A stretch of DNA of 64,000 nucleotides from Shigella phage KPS64, in the sequence record MK562502. One strand, 5' to 3'. Below the pieces are notes generated by a model. It searched no databases, was not told the origin of the DNA, and saw only the letters and a list, made by a program, of their open reading frames with translations. Both the position numbers and the translations under genes were made by a program. Positions 40,831-50,745 of this stretch are shown in pieces (position 1 is the first letter of the stretch; each line of letters starts with the position of its first letter).

Positions 40831-41220
40831 TCTTCACCTCTTTTAAGACCTCTTAAAAGGCTTTTAAGATAAGAGATAGATATCCAGAAAGATATCTGTT
40901 TAAATAGCCTTTTTAGAAGAGTCTTTTAAGTAATCTTCTAAGTATTTATTAGGCTACACGTTGTCAAGAGGAATGTCAAGTAAATTTTTTAGTTGCAATA
41001 CTTCTTGACTTGTTGTATGGATTACTGTACCATCTTACTAAAGCTGTAGGTCTGCCTTTATCTACAAAGGAGACTTAATGAGAAACAATTCAAAATTGAA
41101 GACAGGTAATAATACCAATCACTGTAAGGAATCAAAGCGGGTAGAATTACTCTATTACAAATCCTCTGAAATTGGTTTGTACCTATACTTTCAAAATTAT
41201 AGACGACAAGAGGATTATTT

Positions 41221-47994: not shown

Positions 47995-48415
47995 AGATAT
48001 AGTGCGTAAAGCTTTGCTTAACAACGGAACTAAAGATGATATGTACAAAGATATCGTTGCAGAATTTGGTTGTTCAAGACATGCTGCAAAGGTTCTTCTT
48101 CATAGCTTTATCTGGGAGTGTTCAGAAGCTTACATGCAATCTGTAATAACTGAAGGGCTTGATATGTCTCTACCTGAACGCTTCAAAGAAGAGACTAAGG
48201 CTAGTTCCATAAAGCTAAACACACTCTATATTGTAGAAACCGTTGATACAGGTGAACCAGTAGGCACAATACATATTGAAAGTATGTGTGATGGTAAGTT
48301 CCTTGGTTATGGTGAAGCAAACGCATATAGTGCATTCTCAACCGCACACTGGATAGTTGAAAATGATGGGTATATTCAGGTCAATGGTAAAAACACTTTC
48401 AAACTTAAGATGTGA
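47981..48415 (+). CDS. hypothetical protein (144 aa)
   Basis: ATG at 47981 overlapping upstream stop. Confidence 0.35.
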   Translation: MKNVKDIVRKALLNNGTKDDMYKDIVAEFGCSRHAAKVLLHSFIWECSEAYMQSVITEGLDMSLPERFKEETKASSIKLNTLYIVETVDTGEPVGTIHIESMCDGKFLGYGEANAYSAFSTAHWIVENDGYIQVNGKNTFKLKM

Positions 48416-49083
48416 TTATGGGACACCTTCTGAAGAAGAGTTGGAAGAACTTAATAGATATGGTTCCCCATCTGAAGAGGAAGAGAAAGAACTCCGAGGA
48501 ATGGGAAGCAATTACTAAGAAATGTTTTAAGGATTTGATAGAGATGAAAAAGTTTGAACTTGAAAGAAAGTATCTGGTACTTAGCCTAGATGATATCAAC
48601 ACACATCTTGACGAAAGTGAGAAGTGGTCTTTAGACTTACTTGTTAATCGACTTAAGATGGAACGAGAAGATTCAGGTAAAGAGCCACTTGAAGGTGTCT
48701 TTGTCAAGAAGTCTTATCCGTTCTTTGAAGATACTTTGAAGAAACTTGAGATGTATGTTAAGCAGCAGAACCGTAAAGAGTTCTCTATGATTTCTCTTGG
48801 TGGACAACAAATGCTGGTTATGGAAGATATAAACCCTAAGAGAACCAACAAAGGTGTTTGTATCAAGGTCACAGGTAAAGAAGAATTTATTGATATTGGA
48901 CATTTTAAACATGTCAGTGAAGGTGGCTCCATTTCACTCAATGGCAACCATTATTACATACGAACATACCCGATTAAGGGTTCACAGATTATGATTACAG
49001 TCATGGATGATAGTACTGGATTCACACACTTCTTCCAAACTACAAAGCAAGCTATACAAGCAATCATTGAAGAATTGTGTTGA
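48412..49083 (+). CDS. hypothetical protein (223 aa; start may be the ATG at 48544)
   Basis: Last plus-strand ORF before terminator. Confidence 0.35.
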   Translation: MIMGHLLKKSWKNLIDMVPHLKRKRKNSEEWEAITKKCFKDLIEMKKFELERKYLVLSLDDINTHLDESEKWSLDLLVNRLKMEREDSGKEPLEGVFVKKSYPFFEDTLKKLEMYVKQQNRKEFSMISLGGQQMLVMEDINPKRTNKGVCIKVTGKEEFIDIGHFKHVSEGGSISLNGNHYYIRTYPIKGSQIMITVMDDSTGFTHFFQTTKQAIQAIIEELC

Positions 49084-49090
49084 TTAATAT

Positions 49091-49142
49091 TTAGCCCCTT
49101 AAAATGGATTCGATAGAATCTATCTCATAGGGGCTTTTTATT
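49091..49142 (+). terminator. rho-independent terminator with palindromic element in its loop
   Basis: agcccct ... aggggct stem enclosing GATAGAATCTATC, followed by TTTTTATT. Confidence 0.5.
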
Positions 49143-50719
49143 GAGTAAAATTTACGAAATTTATAATTTTTATAAAATTTGGGACTCACTCCGTTCATCT
49201 TGGGTCACCATGATATGTGATAAAATATCTATACCCTTCTAAACACCCTCTCTAAGCATCATCTCTATATAGTATTATATAGTATCTATATAGCCTCTTA
49301 GTCCCTAAATAGTGCTCTCTATATAGCCCTCTATAAAGCCTTCTAAGCCTACCATTAATCAACCCTATACAATCACCTTCCTAACCTCTTCCTAGCCCCT
49401 TAGAAGCCCCTATACTCATCTTAATCTCTAGGTTATCTGTGTTACTTAACAGTAACCCATTAGGTAAACGATAGTACCCTATATAGCAGAATCACTAGGT
49501 ATTACTAAGCCTCTATATAGACTGTTATATAACACTAAACAGGTATTCCCTGTAAAGGCTTATCCTACAAGGTCTAACACGGTACTAACAAGGTATCTTA
49601 TAAGCCTGTTAATTCCTGTTTTATATAAGATAGTGTATAGATAGTTATTCAGTTCTATAAAATTTTTATAAAATAGACTAGGTAGTGTTTGTTTAGGAGT
49701 CTTTGGAGAATCTGAAAAATATCTACAGAGGGTGTATATCTGCTTGGTAGCCCTTAACAGCCCTGTAACATCCCCTTTGCAAAATCTTAAAATATCATTA
49801 ACAATCTCTTAACAACTCTATCAAGCTCTTAACATCTCTTCAAAGTTCTTAACAGTCTCTTAACAGAACTAACAAGAGCTTAACAAGTCTGTAACATTAC
49901 TAACAAGAGTCTAACAAGTTGCTTATAAGTTGCTAAATAGTTAAATCTTAAGAGTTATTTTGTTAAGATAATTAACAAGGTGCTAACAAGTTCTAAACCT
50001 TTTTAACAAGCTATTAACATGGTCACTATCTCTTGGTCTATAGTTCCCTTCCCTTCTTAGTGATTCTCTTAAAAGCCCTCTTAAAAGCTCTCTATAGCTC
50101 TGTATAGCCTCTTCTAAGCTTCTCCCTAGTAACTACACCCCAACTACCTGTATAGCTCTTTGTAGGGCTTTCTAGGGGCTTATACAGGGACTTCAAAGTG
50201 TCTAACAAGCTCTTAACATACATCTAACAAGGATTTAACAAGGGGCTAACAAGTCTCTAATAAGCATAACTATGTTGCATTTGTTAAGATTTTGTTAAGA
50301 GAATGTAAAGGGGGCTAACTTTTACGTTACTTTTAAGCATCTTTTACGTTACTTTGAAGACTCCATAGCATACTTTAAAGTAACTAACAAGCCCCTGTTT
50401 AACTATTCACAAGATTCTATCCAGCTTATAAGCTTATACCCTTATAAGATTCTTTTAAGGCTCTAGAAAGCTCTATAAAGGGCTTTTAAGAAGTGGTTAA
50501 TATGATTGCTTAAGATGAGATGATAAGCCCGTATAGAGCGTTATAGAGCGTTTTAGGGATTGCCCTTCCCTTTCGGGTTATGGGCTTATATTTAAGTTGA
50601 TTTGATAAGAGGATATAGAGTAAGCTATAGAGTTATTGCTCTGAAGGTATGAGATAGATTCTATTGAATCAATGATATGAATCTTTATATAGGATTCGAT
50701 AGAGGACTATCTCATAGAC
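49143..50719. other. 1.6-kb gene-free, pyrimidine-skewed, repeat-dense region
   Basis: No ORF of 60 aa or more in any frame; clusters of CTATATAG palindromes, CT(T)AACA(A/G) heptamers and CTCTTAAAAG repeats. Confidence 0.6.
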
Positions 50720-50745
50720 GTAAAAAAGCCCCATCTAAGGGGCTG
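50720..50745 (-). terminator. rho-independent terminator ending the minus-strand small-gene array
   Basis: On minus strand agcccc-ttagat-ggggct hairpin followed by TTTTTT. Confidence 0.55.

Follow-up and report, generated by a model that had tools for sequence, protein, structure and literature searches.

Tagged hairpin repeats beside the genome ends of Felix O1-like phages, shared with an Escherichia coli island and tentatively read as REP-like cassettes

What is a short palindromic element doing at both borders of a gene-free stretch of a phage genome? The question is raised by Shigella phage KPS64 (sequence record MK562502), of which 64,000 nucleotides (nt), hereafter the window, have been analyzed here. 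The window belongs to a Felix O1-like phage of the Ounavirinae, its closest records being Mooglevirus and the Shigella Sf13-19 phages. A first-pass annotation made from the letters of the window had pointed to a palindromic 25-bp element, present in three copies, which brackets a region of 1.6 kb without genes, and had proposed that these copies could be operators, recombination sites or the boundaries of an inserted module. As described below, the repeat and its palindromic core are real, and the copies belong to a structured hairpin family with fixed tags, polymorphic as indels and dispensable, whose phage copies are confined to the genome-end region and which is shared with a phage-related island of the E. 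coli chromosome.

The first copy, GGATTCGATAGAATCTATCTCATAG, is parsed as GATTC-GATAG-aat-CTATC-TCATA. The second, located on the opposite strand, matches it at 22 of 25 positions, i.e., with 3 mismatches, and is parsed as GATTC-AATAG-aat-CTATC-TCATA, its stem containing one A·C mismatch which corresponds to G·T on the other strand. The third copy, GGATTCGATAGAGGACTATCTCATAG, parsed as GATTC-GATAG-agga-CTATC-TCATA, has one additional loop nucleotide and two substitutions with respect to the first, and a gapped pattern was required to detect it. None of 100 shuffles of the window gave two or more matches to copy 1 with up to 3 mismatches allowed. Moreover, a structure-aware scan (GATTC, a 5-7 bp stem, a 2-6 nt loop and TCATA, with at most one deviation) retrieved exactly three copies in the 64 kb against 0.08 expected, and a covariance model, the training alignment of which included these three copies, scored them at 36.6-41 bits, the runner-up in the window being at 14.5 bits (E = 1.4). 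Copies 2 and 3 are mutually inverted and base-pair with each other in the fold of the − strand RNA. Regarding the random scatter of motif copies without positional pattern, which the first-pass annotation had named as the outcome that would refute its reading, none was seen: the three copies of the window, as well as the four good copies of the complete Moogle genome, are all located in the terminal non-coding region.

To define the family, copies were gathered from relatives and metagenomes. Its core, 23-30 nt in total, is composed of 5'-GATTC, a stem of 5-7 bp, a loop of 2-6 nt, the complementary stem and TCATA(G)-3'. Two parts are invariant, GATTC at the base of the stem on the 5' side and TCAT(A) on the 3' side; at least ten stems occur, all of them complementary (GATAG, GGTAG, GGATAG, GGATAA, GATTAG, GGATG, GGTTG, GGTTTAT, AGGTAA and TCTAAC), and the loop varies, being A-rich in most copies. 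When 22 distinct variants are aligned, pairing at the five outer positions of the stem reaches 98% (a partly circular figure, see below), and compensatory double changes are found at all five pairs. Most stem variants came from a fuzzy sequence search that had no pairing requirement, and stem covariation amounts to 0.79 against 0.25 in shuffles (0/500) and 0.07-0.12 when the partner is slid. Fixed flanks combined with a stem that needs only to pair imply that the recognized feature is a hairpin with two short single-stranded tags and not a double-stranded dyad; judged from these sequences, the hairpin would thus be read as single-stranded DNA, as a cruciform or as RNA, rather than as a dyad operator.

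An alternative helix, GATTC/GAATC, which is the minimum-free-energy fold of copy 1, was rejected because it lacks covariation and variants do not preserve it. The wobble mismatches (4 A·C versus 2 G·T) are too few to indicate the strand of action. Resemblances to DnaA boxes, IHF sites, ops and hix/res were dropped since the conserved positions do not fit. Searching Rfam with the region and three island loci returned no family match at E <= 1 other than two at chance level, and the element is described neither in the Felix O1 genome paper nor in the Ounavirinae literature searched; the hairpin family is thus apparently undescribed.

The setting of the copies is that of operon ends. Between positions 49084 and 50785, the sole open reading frame (ORF) of at least 40 aa has 43 aa and none reaches 60 aa, and the genes on both sides converge on this gene-free region, the copies being found at the 3' ends of the two operons. 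In agreement with the first-pass annotation, they sit inside or beside the two convergent intrinsic terminators: copy 1 occupies the loop of the left one, and 4 nt separate the end of copy 3 from the T-run of the right one. With copy 1 in its loop, the RNA fold of the left terminator has an energy of −21.4 kcal/mol (z = −4.85), and a 41-nt terminator is annotated at this position in Michonne and Moogle. The G+C-rich stem with a direct U-tract that is typical of intrinsic terminators belongs to the host hairpins (49093-49139 and 50722-50744) and not to the element, which has an A/T-rich 5-bp stem and, in copies 2 and 3, no T-run. Relatives devoid of the insert keep the terminators as plain short hairpins. 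No sigma-70 promoter was found inside the element, and the region has no more predicted promoters than expected from shuffles.

What the copies bracket is a conserved part of the genome. Indeed, 293 records match the gene-free 1.6 kb, 202 of which cover at least 80% of it, and the segment is also present in the copy-free phages Sf17, allfine, KhF2, REP7 and bumzen. The record of phage CRP22 has an identical 579 bp at both ends, equivalent to window 49746-50315, and the 608-bp direct terminal repeat (DTR) of UAB_Phi87, which has been experimentally sequenced (PMC4837284 Fig. S1), maps to window ~49744-50307. In addition, a 581-bp repeat has been identified by PhageTerm in Felixounavirus Pr103Blw (PMC8303462). 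By homology, the bracketed segment is therefore predicted to be composed of the terminal repeat and of unique non-coding DNA, ~615 bp on its left and ~400 bp on its right, between the convergent operons. As it holds the physical genome ends and is conserved in the subfamily, it is not an inserted module, which contradicts one of the three original proposals. The proposal of recombination sites came nearest to the data: the ~25-nt units are themselves indels, but the segment between them is not.

At least seven discrete sites with presence or absence of copies have been recognized in the terminal regions of Ounavirinae (Table 1; L numbers are our own labels). Compared with Sf17, which is 92% identical across the region, copies 1, 2 and 3 of the window are each a precise indel, copy 2 being missing there as a clean 23-nt indel and copy 3 as a clean indel of ~27 nt. 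Site A is empty in Sf17 and in CRP22 (…CCCCTTAATTGGGGC…). Site B is filled in Moogle, BPS15Q2, L015 and L094, with the stem GGTAG/CTACC, and site C in UAB_Phi87, L034, L059 and L121, with a 4-nt loop. The site-D copy is intact in CRP22, BPS15Q2 and EP1; in Moogle, Sf13, SUSP2 and L017, decay has affected its 5' half. Site E has an ortholog with the loop agtt in phiSUSP1, and the loop of site F holds a copy in CRP22, BPS15Q2, SUSP2, pinkbiff and L017. The sites favor the loops of other hairpins, namely both flanking terminators, a TTGAC/GTCAA hairpin and another copy of the element. In the latter case, found in Moogle, a complete copy (GATTC-AGGTAA-tgag-TTACCT-TCATA; L010 4392-4417, record 76572-76597) is nested in the loop of the site-D copy, with a further copy (stem TCTAAC) ~20 nt away.

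All the phage copies lie within ~640 bp of the DTR. Eight of ~25 terminal regions are copy-free even with two deviations allowed (allfine, Sf17, Sf13, REP7, KhF2, bumzen and two IMG/VR contigs), from which it follows that the element is dispensable; the more distant Erwinia phage phiEa104 is copy-free as well. Copies at site A are 100% identical versus 74% for their flanks (9 genomes), and those at site F 100% versus 79% (5 genomes). ATAG-like direct repeats flank the copies in 14 of 48 distinct contexts. L054, considered as a recombinant between the left and right terminators, proved to be a filled site A in a flank of the Sf17 type. Regarding a first pattern scan of IMG/VR, which specified 16 bases, it gave mainly chance matches, and only the contigs from Ounavirinae and from the island described next were real.

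Table 1. Hairpin copies, insertion sites, terminators and terminal repeat, in window coordinates
Feature	Position	Strand	Basis or content
Left intrinsic terminator, + strand operon	49093-49139	+	AGCCCCT…AGGGGCT + T5; copy 1 in loop
Site A, filled by copy 1	49106-49130, left terminator loop	+	exact match, structure-aware scan, covariance model
Site B	49724-49733, 12-14 nt outside left DTR boundary	.	empty in window
Putative direct terminal repeat, ~570 bp	49744-50315	.	homology to CRP22 and UAB_Phi87 repeats
Site C	50390-50393, ~85 nt right of DTR	.	empty in window
Site D, filled by copy 2	50647-50671	−	22/25 match, structure-aware scan, covariance model
Inverted doublet, copies 2 + 3	50647-50717	.	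~23-nt arms, 20-nt spacer; REPIN-like arrangement
Site E, filled by copy 3	50692-50717	+	gapped pattern, structure-aware scan, covariance model
Right intrinsic terminator, − strand operon	50722-50744	−	AGCCCC-TTAGAT-GGGGCT + T5; loop is empty site F
Site F	right terminator loop (50722-50744)	.	empty in window
Further sites			in Moogle, phiSUSP1 and L034

The majority of the metagenome matches were not from Ounavirinae but from an ~11-kb E. coli island integrated in yecE, which carries 2-5 hairpin copies in its intergenic regions. This island is exemplified by L137 13590-24850 of E. coli O111:H8 99.1145 (NZ_CP077481), further loci being L129, L108, L103, L110, L122, L132 and L135; no tRNA gene was found in the island loci. 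A 246-bp probe from the island matches 381 of 5,426 complete E. coli genomes, and the hairpin motif has one match among 185,579 species-representative genomes, which shows that it is not a general host repeat. The island encodes a large serine recombinase, a Hin-like invertase, a Dam-like methylase, a replication-initiator-like protein and several small proteins, together with a tape-measure protein 27% identical to that of the window, with conserved termini, and, after it, a Dit-like protein 62% identical to its window counterpart. Its non-coding DNA is also related to that of the phage. Indeed, the island reproduces the arrangement of the right side of the window, with a terminator followed by an inverted element or by a doublet, such as the one at L084 1018-1085, which has an 18-nt spacer and is equivalent to the doublet of copies 2 and 3. 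Furthermore, island and phage share ~150 nt around the left boundary of the DTR, where the site-B hairpin is the same base for base and the flanks are 76-80% identical, as well as a terminator and a palindrome-bearing promoter region (window 40856-40916). In the literature searched, neither a satellite of the Felix O1 type nor a yecE island is described; the island resembles either a satellite or defective cousin of Felix O1-like phages, or a tail-interference element.

Several smaller features of the island can be mentioned here. The palindrome of the shared promoter region, AGATATC-CAGAAA-GATATCT at window 40878-40897, lies in a divergent promoter region, and its island version, upstream of the methylase gene, has a compensated longer stem (GATATCC-CAGAAA-GGATATC); this palindrome may be a regulatory site common to phage and island. 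Upstream of the invertase gene, the island has GTGACC-17-TAAAAT, the counterpart of a promoter-like GTAACA-17-TAAAAT (49765-49793) which is found just within the left edge of the DTR and is conserved in relatives. A Shine-Dalgarno-like sequence after the island copies was rejected, as it is made of the A-run and stem of an opposite-strand terminator.

How can such a family be understood? We tentatively favor, giving it slightly less than an even chance, the interpretation that the copies are non-autonomous hairpin cassettes of a REP/REPIN-like kind, recognized by a trans-acting factor, which extend terminator hairpins in this location. A trans-acting or recombinational process would copy the cassettes into A/T-rich sites resembling ATAG, and the cassettes would persist where a self-pairing insert is harmless, tolerant targets being chiefly the loops of other hairpins. 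They have probably been exchanged between the phage and the yecE island, which shares its non-coding modules. Within the window, the left terminator would gain an apical stem from copy 1, and an inverted repeat of ~23 bp would be formed just behind the right one by copies 2 and 3, so that extra RNA or DNA structure might be placed at both edges of the terminal region, at the very terminators that fence off the terminal repeat.

By analogy, REP/REPIN (BIME)-RAYT systems are the nearest known kind, and the element may work like a REP without belonging to the REP family. In those systems, the unit is an imperfect palindrome, 20-40 nt long, which folds into a hairpin of variable sequence with a short invariant tag at its base (PMC3733652, PMC3337134, PMC8266576), and the core described here, with its 23-30 nt and its compensatory changes in five pairs, corresponds to this. 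Both are extragenic, often just behind genes or terminators, both are polymorphic for presence and absence, and both form inverted doublets with a short spacer (window 50647-50717 and L084 1018-1085), many copies being single in the present case. The differences are as clear. On one side, REPs end in a conserved tetranucleotide, GTAG or CGTC (PMC3733652), whereas the tags are here GATTC and, at the 3' end, a second one, TCATA. Moreover, the hairpin is rich in A and T, copy numbers are low (0-4 for a phage and 2-5 for an island, against tens to hundreds per bacterial chromosome), the elements are carried by a virulent phage and by an island related to phages instead of a bacterial chromosome, and no RAYT-like gene was found among 17 island proteins or in the Moogle annotation.

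Other mobile cassettes are informative for comparison. In the IS200/IS605 family, with its subterminal hairpins and miniature derivatives, a hairpin and an adjacent short single-stranded sequence are likewise recognized, and insertion takes place beside a short specific sequence without a duplication of fixed length, single-stranded or structured DNA being preferred (PMC6006769). Here, in contrast, there is a single hairpin in place of separate left and right ends, no transposase was found, and the ATAG flank, seen in 14/48 contexts, is only a tendency. Miniature inverted-repeat transposable elements are defined by terminal inverted repeats and a fixed target duplication; the family has the ATAG-like repeats just mentioned and no constant duplication. 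In T4-type phages, promoter-stem-loop cassettes (PeSL), reportedly described by Arbiol et al. in 2010, are said to be short repeated non-coding units with a terminator-type stem-loop, located at mosaic junctions and common to related phages, a description close to ours. However, PeSLs are said to hold an early promoter, to occur throughout hyperplastic gene regions and to act through homologous recombination of one copy with another, whereas the unit studied here lacks a promoter, is found in the terminal region only and itself constitutes the indel.

Several observations weigh against the REP-like interpretation, the main weakness being that no mobilizing enzyme was found. Indeed, there was no Y1/HUH Pfam match in 17 distinct island proteins, no HUH motif in the small proteins of the island, and the annotation of Moogle lists HNH endonucleases only, without any Y1/HUH enzyme. 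No constant target-site duplication emerged from the comparisons of empty and filled sites, and the copies are not uniformly oriented with respect to transcription, those at sites A, B, D and F being sense and those at sites C and E, like most island copies, antisense. Some of the stem variants came from scans demanding complementarity, hence the partly circular nature of the 98% pairing. In addition, identical orthologs in diverged flanks, among them the site-B copies common to phage and island, are explained equally well by mobility and by purifying selection on a function that benefits the carrier, and strict confinement to the terminal region fits the prediction of a terminus-related role. 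A bolder version of this interpretation, which we regard as doubtful, would make the elements a new class of viral non-autonomous mobile DNA, i.e., hairpin cassettes mobilized in trans on single-stranded DNA into hairpin loops and ATAG-like sites, and shuttling between virulent Felix O1-like phages and a satellite-like yecE island which is equipped with tape-measure and distal-tail genes of its own and copies the boundary of the phage terminal repeat.

A terminus-related role can be formulated explicitly: the copies would be cis-acting sites for a protein of the phage (or helper) at the genome ends, involved in terminase action and end processing, in duplication of the terminal repeat, as has been proposed for the hairpin intermediate of T7, or in the start of replication, and the satellite-like island would copy them to exploit this machinery. 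We consider this unlikely, in spite of the proximity of all phage copies to the DTR. In its favor, the DTR boundary and the site-B copy are 12-14 nt apart, and this copy has been kept base for base in the island along with ~150 nt of boundary sequence, most phages have copies pointing toward the DTR from both sides, and the elements are far better conserved than their flanks. There is also a parallel in phage T7: Chung, Nardone and Hinkle (1990) reportedly proposed a hairpin end on concatemers as a processing intermediate, and T7 likewise has short exact terminal repeats with a palindromic sequence beside the repeat. In T7, however, the palindrome is said to be a fixed part of the processing signal, whereas here it is optional and variable in place and number. 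An essential terminus signal is expected in every member of the group, always at one position, and the element is absent from 8 of ~25 terminal regions, although these phages are viable and related ones have DTRs, and its position and number differ between close relatives. Moreover, UAB_Phi87, the DTR of which has been experimentally determined, has only the site-C copy, the island copies are spread over intergenic regions instead of marking one site, and some copies are decaying. That the elements are required for making genome ends is thus not supported.

Just as improbable, in our opinion, is a role restricted to RNA, in which the stem-loops would strengthen or insulate the convergent terminators, or stabilize or process mRNA 3' ends, and so keep transcription out of the terminal repeat. 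Such a role would agree with the sense orientation of copy 1 and of the site-F copies of relatives, which close the loops of terminator hairpins, with the long hairpin formed by copies 2 and 3 directly behind the right terminator, and with the fact that most contexts are in or beside terminators in phage and island alike. It leaves unexplained, on the other hand, the invariant single-stranded tags GATTC and TCATA, for which a purely structural role provides no reason, and the mixed orientation relative to transcription; the hairpins are also short and A/T-rich, with no U-tract in copies 2 and 3, and the terminators of insert-free relatives work as plain short hairpins. Among RNA signals, a nut site of the lambda type is composed of a linear box and of the boxB hairpin, whose conserved loop is read by the N protein. 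The likeness is that of a conserved linear motif beside a small hairpin, on both sides of a control region; here, by contrast, it is the flanks that are fixed and the loop that varies freely, and the sites are at operon ends and not at operon starts.

As for the weakest explanation, that of operators for helix-turn-helix dimers or of att-like border repeats of a module inserted between the copies, the palindromic core and the placement of copies on either side of the gene-free segment are in its favor, but it is essentially excluded, and we give it a negligible probability, because the dyad arms covary freely (~10 different stems, with loops of 2-6 nt and hence a variable spacer, where operators have conserved half-sites, fixed spacing and overlap with a promoter), because the copies lie downstream of convergent genes, with none of their promoters nearby, and because the bracketed segment, instead of being absent from relatives without the repeats, is present in them and is the genome terminus.

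Should the REP-like interpretation hold, small hairpin repeats of this type would not be limited to bacterial chromosomes and would also turn over in the genome-end region of phages. Relatives of Felix O1 are used as typing, biocontrol and therapy phages, and the elements point to a chromosomal island with phage cis-elements and tail genes which may be a satellite or a tail-interference element directed against them; this island is a lead of interest in its own right. In practical terms, small indels and hairpins are concentrated in this region, which is precisely the place where assemblies are opened and termini are called.

Finally, a number of features have been observed in the same region. 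On its left side, the 3' end of the last + strand gene (48412-49083) diverges sharply among close relatives, for example between the window and Sf17, and in many relatives homology picks up again at 49130, the end of copy 1, which identifies the left terminator as a mosaic junction. Right after this terminator, the block TTTTTATTGAGTAAAATTTACGAAATTTATAATTTTTATAAAATTT (49135-49183) is near-invariant in relatives with differing neighboring DNA; it contains a promoter-like TTTACG-16-TAAAAT directed into the non-coding region, and its motif TTTTTATAAAAT is found again at 49664-49675. Within the DTR (49744-50315), there are 19 copies of YTAACA on the + strand, i.e., 33 per kb versus 1.1 per kb elsewhere, the spacing of which (9, 11 or 20 bp) makes the array helically phased; it could be a binding array for the terminase, a replication initiator or a DNA-bending protein. 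Repeats resembling YTAACA, CTTAACAG, occur in a long non-coding stretch of the island-type contig L086. To the right of the DTR, a 19-nt unit, CTTTTACGTTACTTT(T/G)AAG, is directly repeated twice at 22-nt spacing (50319-50359), beginning 4 nt from the predicted boundary, with a weaker third copy at 50441-50459. Its equivalent in CRP22, TTTACGTAACTTT, is found at the same location.

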